From IMG/VR virus record IMGVR_UViG_3300034104_006814, positions 7,108 to 71,107 of that record: a stretch of DNA of 64,000 nucleotides, one strand, 5' to 3'. The notes under the pieces were generated by a model, which was given only the letters and a program-made list of their open reading frames with translations, searched no databases and was not told the origin of the DNA. The DNA comes from a virus. Every line of letters starts with the position of its first letter. The first letter of the stretch is position 1. Below are positions 14,613 to 35,894 of the stretch, one piece after another. Both the position numbers and the translations under genes were made by a program.

Positions 14613-14881
14613 TCGCGACAATTAAAATTATAGGAGTCAACAATTATCATAAAGGGCTTATTGATAGAACTTTAAAAAATGTAAAAATTGCAAGAAACGG
14701 TGAAGGTTCAATAGTTTTTATTACTCAAGATAATGTTATTAAAGAATTTTTTCTAGATAAAAATTCCTCAATTCACTTTACGGATCATGGTTTTGTGGTA
14801 GAAGGTTACGGAGTAGTCGGTTACAATGTTGGTAAATTATCTATTTTAATTCAATCTTATGAAACAAATGCTCTCTTATAA
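14609..14881 (+). CDS. hypothetical protein
   Basis: ATGA overlap with upstream gene. Confidence 0.65.
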   Translation: MIATIKIIGVNNYHKGLIDRTLKNVKIARNGEGSIVFITQDNVIKEFFLDKNSSIHFTDHGFVVEGYGVVGYNVGKLSILIQSYETNALL

Positions 14882-15827
14882 AGATGTAATTTTACTACCA
14901 AATTATTCAGAAGTAAAATCTAGAGATGATATTAATACTTCTATTAATTTATTTAATTTTAATTTTAAATCACCAGTAATACCATCAAACATGGCTTGCT
15001 GCATTGATTTTAAATCGGCAGAAATTTTAGGAAAATCAGGATATTTTTACATTCTTCATAGATTCTATGATTATTATACGCAAATAACACCTTGGTTAGC
15101 TACGTCTCAGGGTAAATTTCCTTTAAGCATAAGTATTGGAGTTAAAGCTATTGATTTTAATTTTTTAGAAGATTTGGCTGGATCTTTTTTAAAAGTTGAT
15201 TTTATCACTATTGATGTAGCTCATGGACATCATGTTTTAGTTAAAAATATTTGCAATCATTTTCATTCCATAACTTGGAAAAATGGATGTAAGCCAAAAT
15301 TAATTGTTGGAAATTTTGGTTCATTTGATGGCGTAAAAGACGCAAAAGAATGGGGTGCAGATATGGTAAAAGTAGGACTCTCAATGGGAGCCGCTTGTAC
15401 CACGTATAACTCAACTGGAGTTGGAACACCAATGTATTCAATAGTAAATGAAATTTATAATGATTTATATGAAGACGATATTCCAATTATTGCTGATGGA
15501 CAAATTAGAGAAATTGGAGATGTAGCAAAAGCGCTAAATGCTGGCGCATCATTAGTAATGATAGGAGGCATGTTTGCAGCTTGCGAAGATAGTCCAGCAG
15601 AATTTAATTTTTATAAAACTCATAAATATTTTTATGGCTCCGCTTCCGCAAAAAATAAAGGGTATGATAAATATACTGAAGGAAAAGAGTCTCTGATAGA
15701 ATGCAATAAATTAACAATGCTTAAATTAAATGAAAAAATTGAACAAGGATTAAGGTCAACAATGTCATATGCTGGTGTAGATGATGTATATGGTCTACGC
15801 GAAATGGAGGCCAGACAACGATTATGA
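14859..15827 (+). CDS. guaC: GMP reductase (IMPDH/GMPR family)
   Basis: LSYKDVILLP, TIDVAHGH, VKVGLSMGAACTT, PIIADG, YGSAS; no CBS domains. Confidence 0.8.
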   Translation: MKQMLSYKDVILLPNYSEVKSRDDINTSINLFNFNFKSPVIPSNMACCIDFKSAEILGKSGYFYILHRFYDYYTQITPWLATSQGKFPLSISIGVKAIDFNFLEDLAGSFLKVDFITIDVAHGHHVLVKNICNHFHSITWKNGCKPKLIVGNFGSFDGVKDAKEWGADMVKVGLSMGAACTTYNSTGVGTPMYSIVNEIYNDLYEDDIPIIADGQIREIGDVAKALNAGASLVMIGGMFAACEDSPAEFNFYKTHKYFYGSASAKNKGYDKYTEGKESLIECNKLTMLKLNEKIEQGLRSTMSYAGVDDVYGLREMEARQRL

Positions 15828-16492
15828 CACCAGAAATTAAAAATAAAATTCAAAAAATTGTAAATGTTTTTGAAAGTGGAAGTCCAAACGGTGATTATGG
15901 ATGTATATCACTATATGAAGATGGCCCAAACGGAATTAAACAAATTACATATGGAAAAAGCCAAACAACCGAATGGGGAAATTTATCCCAGCTTATTAAA
16001 CTTTATATTAGCTTTAGTGGCCAATTTGCCAATGAATTTATTAAGTATGTCGATACTATCGGAAGGACTTCTCTTGTTAATGATAAAAATTTTATTTCAC
16101 TACTAAAACAAGCCTCAAAAGATCCAATTATGAAAGAGTCGCAAGATTCTTTTTTTGACACTCATTATTGGGAACCAGCTAAAAAATGGTTTGATAAAAA
16201 TAATTTTAAATTAAATCTAAGCATGTTAGTAATTTATGATTCTTTTATTCACTCTGGTTCTATTTTAAAATTTTTAAGAAATAGATTTCCAGAAACAACT
16301 CCAGTAAATGGAGGCGATGAAAAAGCTTGGATTGAAAAATATTGCCATGTAAGATTAAATTGGTTAAATAATCATTCAAATCCAATTTTAAGAAAAACAA
16401 ATTATAGAGTTATAGATTTTATTGCAGCTATGGAAAAAAATAATTGGGATTTAGGAAAAGAATTTTCAGCAAATGGGACAAAAATTCCTTGA
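15824..16492 (+). CDS. GH46 chitosanase-like protein, probable endolysin
   Basis: IVNVFESG...YEDG...ITYGKSQTTE, YWEPA, IYDSFIHSG. Confidence 0.75.
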   Translation: MTPEIKNKIQKIVNVFESGSPNGDYGCISLYEDGPNGIKQITYGKSQTTEWGNLSQLIKLYISFSGQFANEFIKYVDTIGRTSLVNDKNFISLLKQASKDPIMKESQDSFFDTHYWEPAKKWFDKNNFKLNLSMLVIYDSFIHSGSILKFLRNRFPETTPVNGGDEKAWIEKYCHVRLNWLNNHSNPILRKTNYRVIDFIAAMEKNNWDLGKEFSANGTKIP

Positions 16493-16528
16493 CTTTGACT
16501 AAATATTAGTTATTATCCATACAACACT

Positions 16529-16798
16529 ATGCAAAACTCAGAAATTCCTACAATCTCTCAAGCAATTCAAAATGCAAATTCAGCCCAAGTGGATTGCCTT
16601 TGGGCAATCTTAAAGTATAAAGAAATTGGCATTTTGAGGAAAGTTAAATGCATGTCTGAATTACTAAGGTTTGACCTTGATAAGGCTTGCAGTGAACTTC
16701 CTGTAAATGAAAATGGTTTTATTGTAGATTACAAGAGCCGCCATTTAATTCACGATATCCTTTTGGAAAAGTCTCGAAATGTCTCAACAAGAGCTTAA
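16529..16798 (+). CDS. hypothetical protein
   Basis: ORF behind TTGACT..TATTAT promoter. Confidence 0.7.
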   Translation: MQNSEIPTISQAIQNANSAQVDCLWAILKYKEIGILRKVKCMSELLRFDLDKACSELPVNENGFIVDYKSRHLIHDILLEKSRNVSTRA

Positions 16799-17021
16799 TT
16801 TTAAAGATTTAATTACTTCTACCATTCAGAGCGAAGTAACAGCATACGAAATTGTTGATGGCAACAATGACTATGTTACATCCTATAGTGCTCTCTTAAA
16901 AAAGAATACTAATGGAAGATTGGATGGTTTGAAGCTCGCTAAAGATGCCGTTAAATACAAACAAGATTATAAAATCTTAGAAGTGTACGAAAACGGTTAC
17001 AGAAAATTATTAGAAATTTAA
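16779..17021 (+). CDS. hypothetical protein
   Basis: 80-aa ORF in operon. Confidence 0.65.
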   Translation: MSQQELNFKDLITSTIQSEVTAYEIVDGNNDYVTSYSALLKKNTNGRLDGLKLAKDAVKYKQDYKILEVYENGYRKLLEI

Positions 17022-17022
17022 T

Positions 17023-17098
17023 CGCGGGATAGCCAAGTGGGAAGGCGGTAGTCTCATAAGCTACCTATTCGAGAGTTCGATTCTCTCTCCCGCAACCA
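17023..17098 (+). tRNA. tRNA-Met(CAU), initiator-like acceptor stem
   Basis: Cloverleaf, anticodon loop CTCATAA, C1:A72 mismatch, encoded CCA. Confidence 0.9.
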
Positions 17099-17100
17099 CT

Positions 17101-17419
17101 TTTCTCAGTAACCACGAACCCAATGGTATATAGGTCTTGTTGTAATTGGAATGTAGCAACATAGAAATCCTGCTGAGAAGCGACACATGCCATTCTGTGA
17201 ATGCGGAGTGCTTGGTTCGGGTTTACTCGAACGCTGAGTTGTGTGACTAATCGGAGAGACGATTTATATAATCCCCCAATTGGGGTGCGACACCTGCTAG
17301 TGGCTCCATGCCGCTAGGCTTGATTTGGCGAAAGCTAGTTGAGTTAGTGGTGTGACAGATCGGAGAGACGAGTATCGAGGTGACACCTACCAAAGTGGTG
17401 TGACACTGGGAGAGACTAG
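17101..17419 (+). ncRNA. candidate structured RNA with three repeated units
   Basis: Three GACAC...GTGTGAC-hairpin(GAGAGA loop) units between two tRNAs; no ORF. Confidence 0.6.
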
Positions 17420-17426
17420 AAATTTT

Positions 17427-17508
17427 GGGCAGTTCGCATAGCGGCTATTGCAGGAGACTGTAAATTTCCCGACTTCGGTCATCGGTGGTTCGAGTCCACC
17501 ACTGCCCA
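17427..17508 (+). tRNA. tRNA-Tyr(GUA)
   Basis: Anticodon loop CTGTAAA, long variable arm, GGTTCGAGTCC; CCA not encoded. Confidence 0.92.
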
Positions 17509-17531
17509 CTTTTTAAGTGTAAAATATTCTT

Positions 17532-18896
17532 ATGAAAGACTGCAGAAATCATCCAAACTCCTTTTCTACAAAAAGAGAGTTTTTAACTAATTTTGGTTGG
17601 GGTATTGGAGGTTTGTCATTAGCTTCTATTTTTGGAATAAATCCATTAAATGCTGAAACTTTGTCTCCGCTTGCTGCAAAGCCACCTCATTTTCCAGTCA
17701 AAGCAAAAGCAGTTATTCAATTGTTTGCTTCTGGAGCGCCATCTCATGTAGATACTTTTGATTATAAACCAGAGCTTCAAAAGAGAGATGGTCAGAAAGG
17801 TGAATATGGAAATTTATTAGCCTCACCATTTGAATTTCCGCGATTTGGTAAATCTGGCTTACCCATATCTGAAGTGTGGTCTAAGCTTGGGCAACATGCT
17901 GATAGCATGGCAATTATTAATTCCATGCAAACTGATGTTCCAGATCATAACATTGCAGCTAAAATGTTTAATACTGGCTCAACTCAACTTCCTAAACCAA
18001 GCTTGGGAAGCTGGCTCACATACGGATTAGGCACAACTAATCAAAATATGCCTGCATTTATCACTTTAAATGGAGCGCCCGAGTGGAGGCAGTGTTCATT
18101 TCTTCCAGGCATGTTTCAAGGTTGTAACGTGCAATTTCGCACTGGTATGAAGCCAGATGAAATTTTAGCAAATTTGAAAAGTCAATTTTCAACTTTAGGC
18201 AGACAAAGAAGACAAATAGATTTTGCAAATATTATAAATAAAGAGCACATGGATAAGCTTCAAAAAGATATCCAACTTGAAGCTAGAATTGAATCTTTTG
18301 AAACTGCATTTAAAATGCAGACTGAAGCTACTGATGCCTTTGATCTCTCTAAAGAATCAGATAATATTAAAGATTTATATGGTCGCAATGAAGAGGGTAA
18401 CAAGATGATTGTTGCGCGCCGTCTAGTTGAAAGAGGAGTTAGATTTGTGCAGGTCCAAGTTGGAGGTTACGATCATCATTCCGACATCAAAACGGCAATG
18501 ACTAACACCGCAATGCGATACGACCAAGCTTTTGCAGGATTATTAACTGATTTAAAACAAAGAGGTCTACTTGATTCTGTTCTTGTGATTTGGGGTGGAG
18601 AATTTGGCAGGACAGTTACTGCTGGTGGCGGCGCAGGAGCACCTGGACGCGATCATAACGGCAAAGCATTTTCCGTATGGATGGCTGGTGGCAATGTTAA
18701 AGGGGGTCAACGCTATGGTGAAACTGATGAAACTGGCGGCAAATCAATTAAAGATATTGTTCATATACATGATCTTCATGCCACTATTCTTCATCTTATG
18801 GGTTTTGATCACACTAAGTTGACATACAATTATAACGGTCGCGAATTTAGGTTGACAGATAATTTTGGCAATGTTATAAAAGAACTAGTAGCATAG
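17532..18896 (+). CDS. DUF1501 family protein (PVC-type, Tat-like signal)
   Basis: TKREFL..GIGGLSLA, PHFPVKAKAVIQLF.SGAPSHVDTFDYKP, ARRLVERGVRFVQ, WGGEFGRT, GRDH, DLHATILHLMG. Confidence 0.92.
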   Translation: MKDCRNHPNSFSTKREFLTNFGWGIGGLSLASIFGINPLNAETLSPLAAKPPHFPVKAKAVIQLFASGAPSHVDTFDYKPELQKRDGQKGEYGNLLASPFEFPRFGKSGLPISEVWSKLGQHADSMAIINSMQTDVPDHNIAAKMFNTGSTQLPKPSLGSWLTYGLGTTNQNMPAFITLNGAPEWRQCSFLPGMFQGCNVQFRTGMKPDEILANLKSQFSTLGRQRRQIDFANIINKEHMDKLQKDIQLEARIESFETAFKMQTEATDAFDLSKESDNIKDLYGRNEEGNKMIVARRLVERGVRFVQVQVGGYDHHSDIKTAMTNTAMRYDQAFAGLLTDLKQRGLLDSVLVIWGGEFGRTVTAGGGAGAPGRDHNGKAFSVWMAGGNVKGGQRYGETDETGGKSIKDIVHIHDLHATILHLMGFDHTKLTYNYNGREFRLTDNFGNVIKELVA

Positions 18897-19113: not shown

Positions 19114-19320
19114 ATGTCTTTAGAAAAAGCAATCTTACATGGCAAGGAAAAGAGGCAGCAATACAGAGGAAGAACGTCAAAAAGATTTGATCGCAGTTGT
19201 CGTAATCATGGCAACTGTAGTTGGTGCGAAAATAATCGTCTATTTTCTTTTCGAAAGGTAAAATTTAAAGCAAGCGAAGAGATTAAAGAATTTCGAACAT
19301 TTGAAGAATGGCCAGAATAG
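19114..19320 (+). CDS. small basic hypothetical protein
   Basis: MSLEKAILHGKEKR...CRNHGNCSWC; start moved to ATG after GTGTAA motif. Confidence 0.75.
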   Translation: MSLEKAILHGKEKRQQYRGRTSKRFDRSCRNHGNCSWCENNRLFSFRKVKFKASEEIKEFRTFEEWPE

Positions 19321-19721
19321 ATAAAATTACTTGGTGGCTTTTATTGGCTGAATTAGCTTCAGAAAGAAGCGAAGATCCTTGGTGTAAGGTTGGAGCAATA
19401 GGAGTTCGCGAAGATGGATCTATCGCTGGCGTTTCTTATAATGGAGCGCCTCCAAAAATTGAAATAGATTGGAGCAATCGTGATAAACGTAGACAATACG
19501 TTGTTCACGCTGAAACTAATTTATTAAGATATATTAAACCAAATGAGTGCCCTATAGTTGCAACTACTATTTCTCCTTGTTATGATTGTTTAAAAAATCT
19601 AGCAAGTTATGGCGTGAAGCAAATTTATTTTAAAGAATACTACGATAAATGCGATAAAAAAGAGTTGCAAAAGATGGCTGAGTTATTTAAGATTGACCTA
19701 TATCAATGCAATTCACAGTAA
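19308..19721 (+). CDS. dCMP deaminase
   Basis: RSEDP..KVGA, YNG, HAE, SPCYDC. Confidence 0.9.
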   Translation: MARIDKITWWLLLAELASERSEDPWCKVGAIGVREDGSIAGVSYNGAPPKIEIDWSNRDKRRQYVVHAETNLLRYIKPNECPIVATTISPCYDCLKNLASYGVKQIYFKEYYDKCDKKELQKMAELFKIDLYQCNSQ

Positions 19722-34646: not shown

Positions 34647-35894
34647 ATGAAGAATTCAAAAATATTTATACAAATAGCTTCTTATAGAGATCCTCAGTTG
34701 CTTCCTACAATAAGAGACTGTATTAAAAATGCAAAGCATCCAGAAAATTTAGTTTTTGCAATTTGTTGGCAAAGAGATGAAACAGAATCGCTAGAAGAAT
34801 TTGCCAATGATGAAAGATTTAGAATTATAGACGTTCCTCACATGGAAAGTCGTGGAGCTTGTTGGGCAAGAAATAAAATTCAACAGCTTTATAAGAGCGA
34901 AAAATATACATTGCAATTAGATTCTCATCATAGATTTATAAAAAACTGGGATGAAGAATTAATTAGCATGTTAGAAAATTTAAGAAAAAAGGGCCATAAA
35001 AAACCCCTTTTAACAAGTTATATTCCTAGCTTTGATCCAGATAATGATCCAGAAAAAAGAGTTCAAGCGCCTTGGAAAATGGATTTTGATAGATTCATTC
35101 CTCAAGGTGCAGTTTTCTTTTTGCCATCAACAATAGAAAACTGGCAACAATTAACAGAACCAATCCCAGCCAGATTTTATTCGGCACATTTTTGTTTTAC
35201 GGTTGGCAGATTTGCAAGAGAGGTTCAACATGACCCAGAATATTATTTTCATGGCGAAGAAATAAGCATAGCTGTTAGGGCATATACTCACGGATACGAC
35301 TTATTTCATCCCCATAAAGTTATAGCTTGGCATGAATATACCAGAAAAGGCAGAACTAAACATTGGGATGATGTTAAAGACTGGGGAGATTTGAATGCAA
35401 AATGCCACAAAAAAAATAGAATACTTTTTGGAATGGATGGCGAAAATCCAAAATCAATTGATTTTGGAAAATATGGATTTGGCACAAAAAGATCTTTAGA
35501 AGATTATGAAAGATATGCTGGAATTTCTTTTTCAAAAAGAGCCGTTCAAAAATATACAAAAGACAATCATATTGCGCCAAATCCAGTTATAGAAAATAAA
35601 GAAGAATATGAAAAATCTTTTTTAAGTATTTTTAAGCATTGCATTGATATAGGATATCATCAAGTTCCAGAAAAAGATTACGATTTTTGGGCTGTTATTT
35701 TTAAAGATGAAGACGATAAAGATTTATATAGAAAAGATGCCGTACCAGATGAAATAACAATGATGAAAAACGATCCAGATAAATATTGCAAACTTTGGAG
35801 AGAATTTCATACAGAAAAACCTCCTAAAAAATGGATTGTTTGGCCTCATAGTCTATCAAAAGGATGGTGTGATATGATTCAAGGCGTTCTTTAA
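34647..35894 (+). CDS. GlcNAc-transferase family protein (Skp1 GlcNAcT-like)
   Basis: IFIQIASYRDP, GACWAR, LQLDSHHRF, FHGEEI..AVRAYTHGYD. Confidence 0.85.
   Translation: MKNSKIFIQIASYRDPQLLPTIRDCIKNAKHPENLVFAICWQRDETESLEEFANDERFRIIDVPHMESRGACWARNKIQQLYKSEKYTLQLDSHHRFIKNWDEELISMLENLRKKGHKKPLLTSYIPSFDPDNDPEKRVQAPWKMDFDRFIPQGAVFFLPSTIENWQQLTEPIPARFYSAHFCFTVGRFAREVQHDPEYYFHGEEISIAVRAYTHGYDLFHPHKVIAWHEYTRKGRTKHWDDVKDWGDLNAKCHKKNRILFGMDGENPKSIDFGKYGFGTKRSLEDYERYAGISFSKRAVQKYTKDNHIAPNPVIENKEEYEKSFLSIFKHCIDIGYHQVPEKDYDFWAVIFKDEDDKDLYRKDAVPDEITMMKNDPDKYCKLWREFHTEKPPKKWIVWPHSLSKGWCDMIQGVL

Follow-up and report, generated by a model that had tools for sequence, protein, structure and literature searches.

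The question raised by this locus is what is encoded between the tRNA-Met and tRNA-Tyr genes of the virus. The window (the whole stretch of 64,000 nt that was analyzed) comes from a 71-kb viral record, the completeness of which is estimated at ~53%, and lake-water metagenomes contain DNA near-identical to the stretch. Among its products are a tail protein L of the lambda type and a Phage-tail_3 protein. The relatives of the tail protein L all show less than 40% identity and those of the SU10-type capsid protein that precedes many of the arrays described below all less than 31%; a 630-aa ORF has no relative among GenBank phages. An earlier note on this DNA had described a tandem three-unit structured RNA in the region 17101–17419.

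The placement of this region between tRNA-Met and tRNA-Tyr agreed with the ARAGORN analysis, which called only the two flanking tRNAs and neither a tRNA nor a tmRNA within 17101–17419. The distance between the two tRNA genes is 328 nt. As the earlier note had claimed, the region is richer in GC than its surroundings (0.45–0.52 against about 0.30–0.34 upstream) and holds no ORF worth the name, since the ORFs overlapping it are all of 48 aa or less and all lie on the minus strand. The plus strand of the region folded better than shuffled sequences (z −2.49), and the minus strand did so to a lesser degree (z −1.39). The region 17101–17419 is a composite non-coding RNA of the plus strand, which consists of a module at the 5' side (module A), three two-hairpin units, and a small palindromic hairpin. 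The features are as follows (P1 and P2 are the two stems of a unit).

17023–17098, plus strand: tRNA-Met (CAT), called by ARAGORN and by the Rfam tRNA model (55.3 bits); the upstream boundary.
17101–17179, plus strand: module A, a conserved, separate structured RNA of 80 nt (18-mer scan, RNAalifold).
17180–17266, plus strand: unit 1, which encloses two internal hairpins (sequence itself, model match).
17180–17187, plus strand: the 5' strand of unit 1, GCGACACA.
17240–17247, plus strand: the 3' strand of unit 1, TGTGT-GAC.
17249–17264, plus strand: P2 of unit 1, AATCG-GAGAGA-CGATT.
17273–17285, plus strand: palindromic hairpin CCCCCAATTGGGG between units 1 and 2, a reading by eye that carries no statistics.
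17287–17375, plus strand: unit 2, with two internal hairpins; model match of 36.6 bits, E 1.2e-8.
17287–17294, plus strand: the 5' strand of unit 2, GCGACACC.
17349–17356, plus strand: GGTGT-GAC of unit 2.
17360–17371, plus strand: P2 of unit 2, TCG-GAGAGA-CGA.
17380–17422, plus strand: unit 3, the minimal form; model match of 36.9 bits, E 9.5e-9.
17380–17387, plus strand: the 5' strand of unit 3, GTGACACC, followed by a 9-nt loop.
17397–17404, plus strand: GGTGT-GAC of unit 3.
17406–17419, plus strand: P2 of unit 3, CTGG-GAGAGA-CTAG.
17420–17426, plus strand: A/U-rich 7-nt spacer AAATTTT, which serves as the 5' leader of tRNA-Tyr.
17427–17509, plus strand: tRNA-Tyr (GTA), called by ARAGORN; the downstream boundary.

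The three GTGTGAC strings start at 17241, 17350, and 17398, exactly where they had been reported together with the GAGAGA-loop stems. The reported change of the closing helix was also found in the sequence: ACACA/TGTGT in unit 1 (17183–17187 paired with 17240–17244), and ACACC/GGTGT in unit 2 (17290–17294 with 17349–17353) and unit 3 (17383–17387 with 17397–17401). The same is true of the extra hairpins of units 1 and 2 and of the minimal form of unit 3. The pattern GTGTGAC-N3-6-GGAGAGAC occurs 3 times in the 64 kb, and none of 100 shuffled sequences contained any match to it.

For the search of relatives, a covariance model of 49 positions and 11 pairs, named R1, was built using minimal units from 20 places, all of them in other contigs. 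R1 matched exactly the three units in the window and no other place in the 71-kb record. In unit 1, the model picked a nearer 5' partner and the match covers 17229–17266 (25.2 bits, E 1.8e-5); the layout given above for this unit is the same in the homologous units of the loci L010, L298, L339, and L341. All three units fit the definition of the family, namely G-N-R, a 5-bp P1 and GAC, then a short linker and a P2 of 4–5 bp with a GAGAG(A/U) loop.

Across the family, the unit reads G-N-R, ACACC, U-G-C, a variable insert, A-G-U, GGUGU, and G-A-C, usually followed by 1 nt and then by stem P2 with the loop GAGAG(A/U). P1 consists of 5 bp of the almost fixed sequence ACACC/GGUGU, and the insert at its tip is from 8 to more than 100 nt long and contains 0, 1, or 2 hairpins. 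The conserved positions flanking P1 form no standard pairs: N-R stands opposite G-A below the helix and U-G-C opposite A-G-U above it. Read from its sequence as a duplex, the unit has G.G and C.A mismatches on each side of P1, and we infer that P1 and these flanking mismatches would form a quasi-symmetric rod. The string GGAGAGAC was present in 49 of the 86 distinct units of a set that had not been selected on the loop. Most of the other 37 retain GAGAG(A/U) with different closing pairs (C-G, A-U, U-A, etc.), and a minority of them deviate or have no hairpin.

P2 is 4–5 bp long in 169 of the 198 units, and the linker between P1 and P2 is 1 nt in 138 of the 198. As far as lengths can tell, these near-equal and constrained helices with a 1-nt linker suggest that P1 and P2 may pack side by side, with the GAGAG loop docking on P1 where its tip forms a conserved internal loop. 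A pyrimidine pentamer that could pair with GAGAG follows P2 within 12 nt in 57 of the 196 units, against 3 and 4 of the 196 in control windows, and such a tract is found after the last unit of an array in 47 of 127 cases against 10 of 69 for the inner units. A U tract, about 3 nt away from the stem, is present in about a third of the units. The pyrimidine tract could belong to a tRNA leader or to a weak terminator, or could optionally pair with the loop in a pseudoknot. An obligatory pseudoknot between the loop and its flank was rejected, as the upstream tract occurs in 4 of the 196 units and the downstream one in only 57.

The analysis of homologous units indicated that the motif works at the level of RNA. 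Standard pairs filled 96.4% and 97.3% of the paired cells in two alignments, compared with 80.8% and 79.9% in the shuffled ones, and the observed covariation was reached by none of the 500 shuffles. Being fitted to the model, these alignments favor the structure; the pairing evidence is robust in spite of this because of the size of the effect and because pairing fell to 20–54% when the partner was slid by 1–3 columns. Changes on both sides were seen in 4 of the 5 P2 pairs and then in 5 of 5, in dozens of sequences, and one pair of P1 changed from A-U to G-C in 17 and 12 sequences of the two alignments. The orientation of the motif is equally consistent. None of the 129 loci with complete units carried them on both strands, and all 46 tRNA genes within 500 nt of the motif were on its strand. 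The nearest ORFs of at least 150 aa were on the same strand in 127 cases and on the opposite one in 35, a count inflated by spurious ORFs in GC-rich contigs. The unit is thus a modular RNA fold, conserved and specific to one strand, in which the purine loop is invariant and one helix is conserved in sequence. The repeated structured RNA proposed in the earlier note is borne out by the covariation in hundreds of homologues and by this strand-specific placement.

One more reading, that of a double-stranded DNA operator or a palindrome acting at the DNA level, was rejected, since the two arms of P1 stand anywhere between 8 and more than 100 nt apart and the orientation follows transcription.

To see how widely the motif is spread, two scans of viral sequences were used. 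The first one looked for the exact pattern GTGTGAC-N3-6-GGAGAGAC, in which the loop is required, and gave at least 120 loci; the second was anchored on the two P1 strands only and added at least 93 new loci. Among the matches listed, R1 found 127 in 76 of 100 viral pattern loci, 31 in 16 of 20 further viral loci, and 137 in the 93 loci of the P1-only scan. The viral total is at least 295 units in at least 213 contigs, in arrays of 1–5 units each; besides the record of the window, at least 16 loci of the first scan have 2–5 matches in tandem. In bacterial genomes, the pattern is mostly due to chance; R1 nevertheless gave 16 matches, of up to 55.8 bits, in 15 of 100 pattern loci. The carriers are titled Microbulbifer, Xenorhabdus, Roseovarius, Bryobacteraceae, Gemmatimonadales, Sulfotelmatobacter, and others, and the units lie in prophage-like regions of several bacterial phyla. 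The hosts range over Gammaproteobacteria, Alphaproteobacteria, Acidobacteriota, and Gemmatimonadota, and few RNA motifs keep 20 or more nt nearly unchanged across hosts this distant. We consider it very probable that the region is a real member of a new and widespread phage RNA family.

Nothing in Rfam accounts for this family. The Rfam 15 collection (4227 models) includes tRNA, tmRNA, manA, GOLLD, ROOL, HDV-type, hammerhead, twister, pistol, hatchet, Mu-gpT-DE, and the PyrR site. At the gathering threshold only tRNAs were found in the window, and at E ≤ 10 over 16900–17600 there was no match within 17101–17419, which leaves the RNA outside the named phage RNA families, to none of which the earlier note could assign it. 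In 15 related loci, the gathering threshold gave tRNAs and one distant hammerhead only; in 7 loci, capsid-downstream arrays and a Mu-like prophage included, nothing was found on the units at E ≤ 1. BLAST of the 328-nt region and of a 12-kb flank against GenBank phages returned chance matches of 24–28 nt or none, and the Xenorhabdus copy had no match in phages and E. coli genomes. Overall, BLAST found nothing past the short core in GenBank phages or, for the enterobacterial-type copy, in E. coli. The letters of the motif in RNA spelling are absent from the main articles of the searchable literature, and in DNA spelling they return only unrelated primer or 16S papers. Within the same scope, we found no description of the motif in the literature on phage structured RNAs, ribozymes, and tmRNA-linked RNAs. 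The motif is previously uncatalogued, being absent from both Rfam 15 and the searchable literature.

Several known systems still deserve comparison. Mu-gpT-DE RNA lies downstream of a major head protein gene. Many of the present arrays are likewise 3' of a major capsid gene, and a Mu gp36 gene is found just downstream of one bacterial copy, but no match to the Mu-gpT-DE model was found at gathering (15 loci) or at E ≤ 1 (7 loci). Mu-gpT-DE is listed in Rfam as RF03012 (PMC7657543). The manA, GOLLD, ROOL, and theta (HDV-like) RNAs are also structured phage RNAs in or near tRNA clusters; the Rfam models of the first three had no match in the window and 15 related loci, and for theta the same is true of the general HDV-type families. 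The stable RNAs C and D (species 1 and 2) of phage T4 are structured, lie within the tRNA cluster, and are presumably freed by tRNA-processing enzymes. By description, they resemble the present RNA as small structured RNAs among phage tRNA genes, but the present motif is modular, repeated, and also found far from tRNAs. The CsrB/RsmZ sponges and ToxI antitoxins similarly carry several hairpin units with a conserved loop on one abundant transcript; the loop motif and the P1 rod of the present unit are probably unlike those RNAs, and the present units are divergent rather than near-identical. A ToxI-like RNA array of a type III toxin–antitoxin system, where an endoribonuclease toxin gene comes after tandem repeats that are almost identical, was rejected, since the units of one array diverge widely outside the core. 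No toxin family was found in the subset of flanking genes scanned, where DUF1501, capsid, primase, and HNH proteins were among the families hit and several ORFs matched nothing.

Two further identities were set aside. Mimicry of 5S rRNA (RF00001), a lead that arose from short words which we take to be shared with 5S rRNA, was rejected, as there was no 5S match at E ≤ 10 in the 71-kb record and the topology differs; the same search matched 14 of 14 control genomes, in 13 of them over the cut-off. A Shine–Dalgarno or standby-site reading of the GGAG in the loop fails because some of the closing pairs remove GGAG and many units precede tRNAs.

The genomic neighbors of the motif are diverse. Among the first-scan loci listed, about 28 of 120 arrays begin 25–90 nt past the stop codon of a protein of 350–360 aa, which is the SU10-type major capsid protein (PF17236, phrog_1328), and about 22 of 120 have tRNAs of the same strand next to them. 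In 7 of the first-scan loci listed, a tRNA starts 5–10 nt past P2, as tRNA-Tyr does in the window. The bacterial copies, where neighbors were scanned, adjoin a PriCT-2/Toprim primase, a replication-organiser-like protein, Mu gp36, or tRNAs, and some of the neighbors scanned are ordinary cellular genes (OmpA, MacB/FtsX, methyltransferase). In the flanks examined, we saw no gene family co-occurring with the motif. What the loci share is not a particular neighbor gene but their place in an intergenic spacer, within a transcription unit that is long and heavily transcribed. Three phages available in culture carry the motif as well:

Pseudomonas phage Itty13: upstream of the small terminase gene, in a gap of ~880 nt that has no annotation (35.2 bits).
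Marinobacter phage PS3: close to the integrase (32.6 bits).
Morganella phage IME1369_02: between an Rz1-like lysis gene and an HNH-terS-terL block (27.8 bits).

Since these phages are in culture, the function of the motif is directly testable. For the region itself, one metatranscriptome contig, which represents a relative ~91% identical, covers 16505–17420, upstream ORFs included, and a contig from another metatranscriptome library covers 17145–17356. The two contigs are a weak hint of expression; they show neither ends, strand, nor level, and may stem from DNA carry-over, and stretches that no such contig covers are uninformative.

The motif is common and sits in the most heavily transcribed parts of phage genomes, and the conservation of 20 or more nt across distant phyla suggests either a self-contained activity or a universal partner. 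For the function, the earlier note had named a decoy or protein-binding RNA, a signal for processing, or a ribozyme as options. Our tentative reading is that the unit is a specific binding site by which the RNA acts as a multivalent sponge, decoy, or recruiter for a putative conserved host factor. The RNA begins 2–3 nt after the encoded CCA of tRNA-Met and ends 7 nt before tRNA-Tyr, and because of this position the enzymes that trim tRNAs may release it: RNase P at the 3' side and tRNA 3'-end processing at the 5' side would free a stable RNA of ~320 nt. P1 and P2 would fold into one compact module with the GAGAG loop docked on the tip of P1, and a conserved host factor that acts in RNA metabolism or in translation would bind to it. 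Each transcript would carry several copies of the module, and the phage would place them on the transcripts it makes most of, those of the tRNA clusters and of the region 3' of the major capsid gene, so that the copies could titrate or recruit the factor as a sponge or decoy.

The copy number, the placement on abundant transcripts, and the sequence-conserved P1 all suit such a recognition site. But the units of one array are divergent and their subtypes occur in a conserved order, neither of which is needed by a simple sponge, and many loci have a single copy before replication or packaging genes, where a cis-acting element fits better than a pure sponge.

A self-contained activity could instead be catalytic. 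The unit would then be a new class of small self-cleaving ribozyme, in which GAGAG and the non-canonical loops around P1 form the active site; we regard this as unlikely, and with the same reserve we note that cleavage would separate tRNA-cluster and late polycistronic transcripts into separately stable pieces. The less specific version, in which the unit is a ribozyme or some other new self-contained catalytic or ligand-binding fold in phages of many phyla, seems to us no likelier. In favor of the ribozyme, the unit is self-contained and does not depend on its context: the same 40-nt core recurs in phages and prophages of very different hosts and in spacers of any gene content. The conserved nucleotides cluster in loops and junctions, leaving P2 and the insert at the P1 tip free, and the helix lengths are constrained, as they would be for loop-to-loop docking. 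Hammerhead, twister, and HDV-like theta ribozymes are also located in phage intergenic regions and next to phage tRNAs, and one unit-bearing contig has a type II hammerhead (43.1 bits) about 7 kb away. Yet no conserved dinucleotide stands out at a candidate cleavage site, the position before G1 is not conserved, and no Rfam ribozyme family matches. P1, moreover, is conserved in sequence and not merely in pairing, and 3–5 ribozymes in a row would have no obvious purpose in a 3' untranslated region.

The single copies before replication and packaging genes bear on a cis-acting role in transcription, in which the nascent unit would bind the elongating RNA polymerase or a Nus-type factor. Such antitermination would allow read-through of terminators and of Rho-dependent stops in untranslated tRNA/tmRNA clusters and at the junctions of operon modules. 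The distribution of the units is suggestive: in prophage-like islands they stand before primase or replication-organiser genes, in IME1369_02 the unit separates the lysis genes from HNH-terS-terL, and in Itty13 it is upstream of terS; others come after the capsid gene or lie in or before untranslated tRNA/tmRNA runs. The put RNAs of phage HK022 consist of two adjacent hairpins with a very short linker and act on their own transcript. The present unit, two hairpins 1 nt apart, resembles this layout, but we know of no put RNAs in arrays, and the known antitermination sites do not come as up to five copies in tandem. The HK022 genome gave no significant R1 match, and we saw neither a boxA-like element nor a consistent downstream terminator. 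Overall, we find this role doubtful in both its parts, the binding of polymerase and the read-through. Kinship with put was rejected on its own account: with filters off, the best R1 match in the 40.7-kb HK022 genome, 11.7 bits with an E of 0.065, lies inside a tail gene and is not significant.

The arrays directly 3' of the major capsid gene (about 28 of the 120 loci, among the loci listed) would also suit a protective role. The unit would in this case be a compact, nuclease-resistant fold shielding capsid mRNA, downstream messages, or tRNA precursors from exonucleases, and at times the final P2 would also serve as a weak intrinsic terminator. The pyrimidine tract after P2 (57/196), commoner after the last unit than after inner ones, is in keeping with the latter. 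Any stable GC-rich hairpin protects bacterial 3' ends, though, which leaves the 20 or more near-invariant nt across phyla unexplained. The U tract, in turn, is present in only about a third of units and stands ~3 nt from the stem, and when the region of the Morganella phage was scanned for terminators with a simple method, the unit was not among the calls. We therefore judge the shielding improbable, and the doubling as terminator no less so.

A ligand-binding aptamer or tandem riboswitch is hardly credible: the core is compact and conserved with variable peripheral stems, and a glutamine riboswitch is reported to adjoin ssrA (tmRNA) in aquatic phages (PMC9004378), but the function of the downstream genes is inconsistent, the units also occur between tRNA genes and in 3' untranslated regions, the arrays reach five copies, and, as the P2 loop is itself invariant, there is no evident expression platform.

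The units are not the only structured part of the region. The earlier note had seen an extra stem preceding unit 1. This stem is present, but it is not an accessory of unit 1: it closes the separate 80-nt module A. Its strands, TTCTCAG.../...CTGAGAA, pair 17102–17109 with 17172–17179 and enclose an ACCA/UGGU hairpin as well as a covarying hairpin with an invariant 18-nt loop region (17141–17158). A complete scan found the invariant 18-mer in 24 viral loci, one of them inside an apparent coding sequence. A unit directly follows the closing stem in 20 loci, the record of the window included; at one locus, module A directly precedes an apparent tmRNA 5' end, the tmRNA not being called by ARAGORN. 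Of the 20 pairs that RNAalifold predicted from 20 module A sequences, 7 show double-sided changes, in the main hairpin and the closing stem. Module A had no Rfam match at E ≤ 10 over 16900–17600, and the Rfam searches of the 15 and 7 related loci yielded no family for it either.

In 4 relatives, ARAGORN places a tmRNA gene right after the block of module A plus units, where tRNA-Tyr stands here. As module A, the units, and tmRNA or tRNA genes combine in this way across relatives, the block belongs to a set of RNA modules which these phages line up in series with tRNA and tmRNA genes. The motif joins a growing set of uncatalogued RNA modules around phage tRNA and tmRNA genes, and knowledge of its partner or action would help to explain the RNA islands of phages. 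The palindromic hairpin CCCCCAATTGGGG between units 1 and 2 is kept in relatives as well, and by eye it shows a compensating change, CUCC/GGAG, in the locus L347.

The RNA block of the window, consisting of a conserved structured RNA (module A) and three copies of a two-hairpin motif (the units), follows a tRNA-Met gene (17023-17098), and tRNA-Met precedes this block in at least eight related loci. The acceptor stem of the window tRNA-Met is topped by a C1 x A72 mismatch, a hallmark of the bacterial initiator tRNA; its anticodon stem does not show the three G-C pairs of an initiator tRNA. In four relatives, the place taken by tRNA-Tyr in the window is occupied by a tmRNA gene, which lies directly 3' of the block formed by module A and the units:

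L344 3315-3705, tmRNA gene
L349 3893-4284, tmRNA gene
L351 2877-3269, tmRNA gene
L341 1122-1547, tmRNA gene

The tag encoded by these tmRNAs is long (30-32 residues) and ends in LAA or AAV at the C-terminus.

Further small RNA elements were seen in the window and at other loci:

Window 17273-17285, 13-nt palindromic hairpin CCCCCAATTGGGG between units 1 and 2
L058 about 2690-2740, also L064, L027 and L008, examples of a conserved element of ~48 nt
L047 11570-11632, minus strand, type II hammerhead ribozyme (RF02276, 43.1 bits)

The 13-nt hairpin is kept in relatives, one of which carries a compensating change, and its self-complementary loop could allow the pairing of two RNAs. The ~48-nt element, the third conserved and uncatalogued one, recurs upstream of or between the units in the arrays located directly 3' of the SU10-type major capsid gene. 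It is composed of an inner GNRA-capped hairpin enclosed by a GC-rich closing stem, together with a CCUCAAACC stretch, and had no match in Rfam. The hammerhead ribozyme shares a strand with the units carried by its contig and is separated from them by about 7 kb.

In Pseudomonas phage Itty13, a stretch of about 880 nt carries no annotation (L356 2450-3330; about 34660-35540 of the record). It contains a unit, a repeated GGCTGCATCGGA word and several T-arm-like hairpins that were not called as tRNAs by ARAGORN. This stretch of a cultured phage may represent a larger RNA island.

The protein genes in and around the tRNA cluster of the window are as follows:

17532-18896, DUF1501 protein of 454 aa (PF07394, E 2e-130)
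14859-16492 and 19308-19721, auxiliary genes on the cluster flanks

The DUF1501 gene lies inside the cluster, with tRNA-Tyr on one side and tRNA-Asn/Thr on the other, and is an unusual phage passenger. The flanking genes encode a GMP reductase/IMPDH-family protein, a glycosyl hydrolase family 46 protein and a dCMP/cytidine deaminase.

A gene of Morganella phage IME1369_02 that bears a holin annotation (L358 2578-2931) matches an HNH endonuclease (PF01844, E 8.5e-16). Given this match and the position of the gene in the usual HNH-terS-terL arrangement, the annotation looks wrong.
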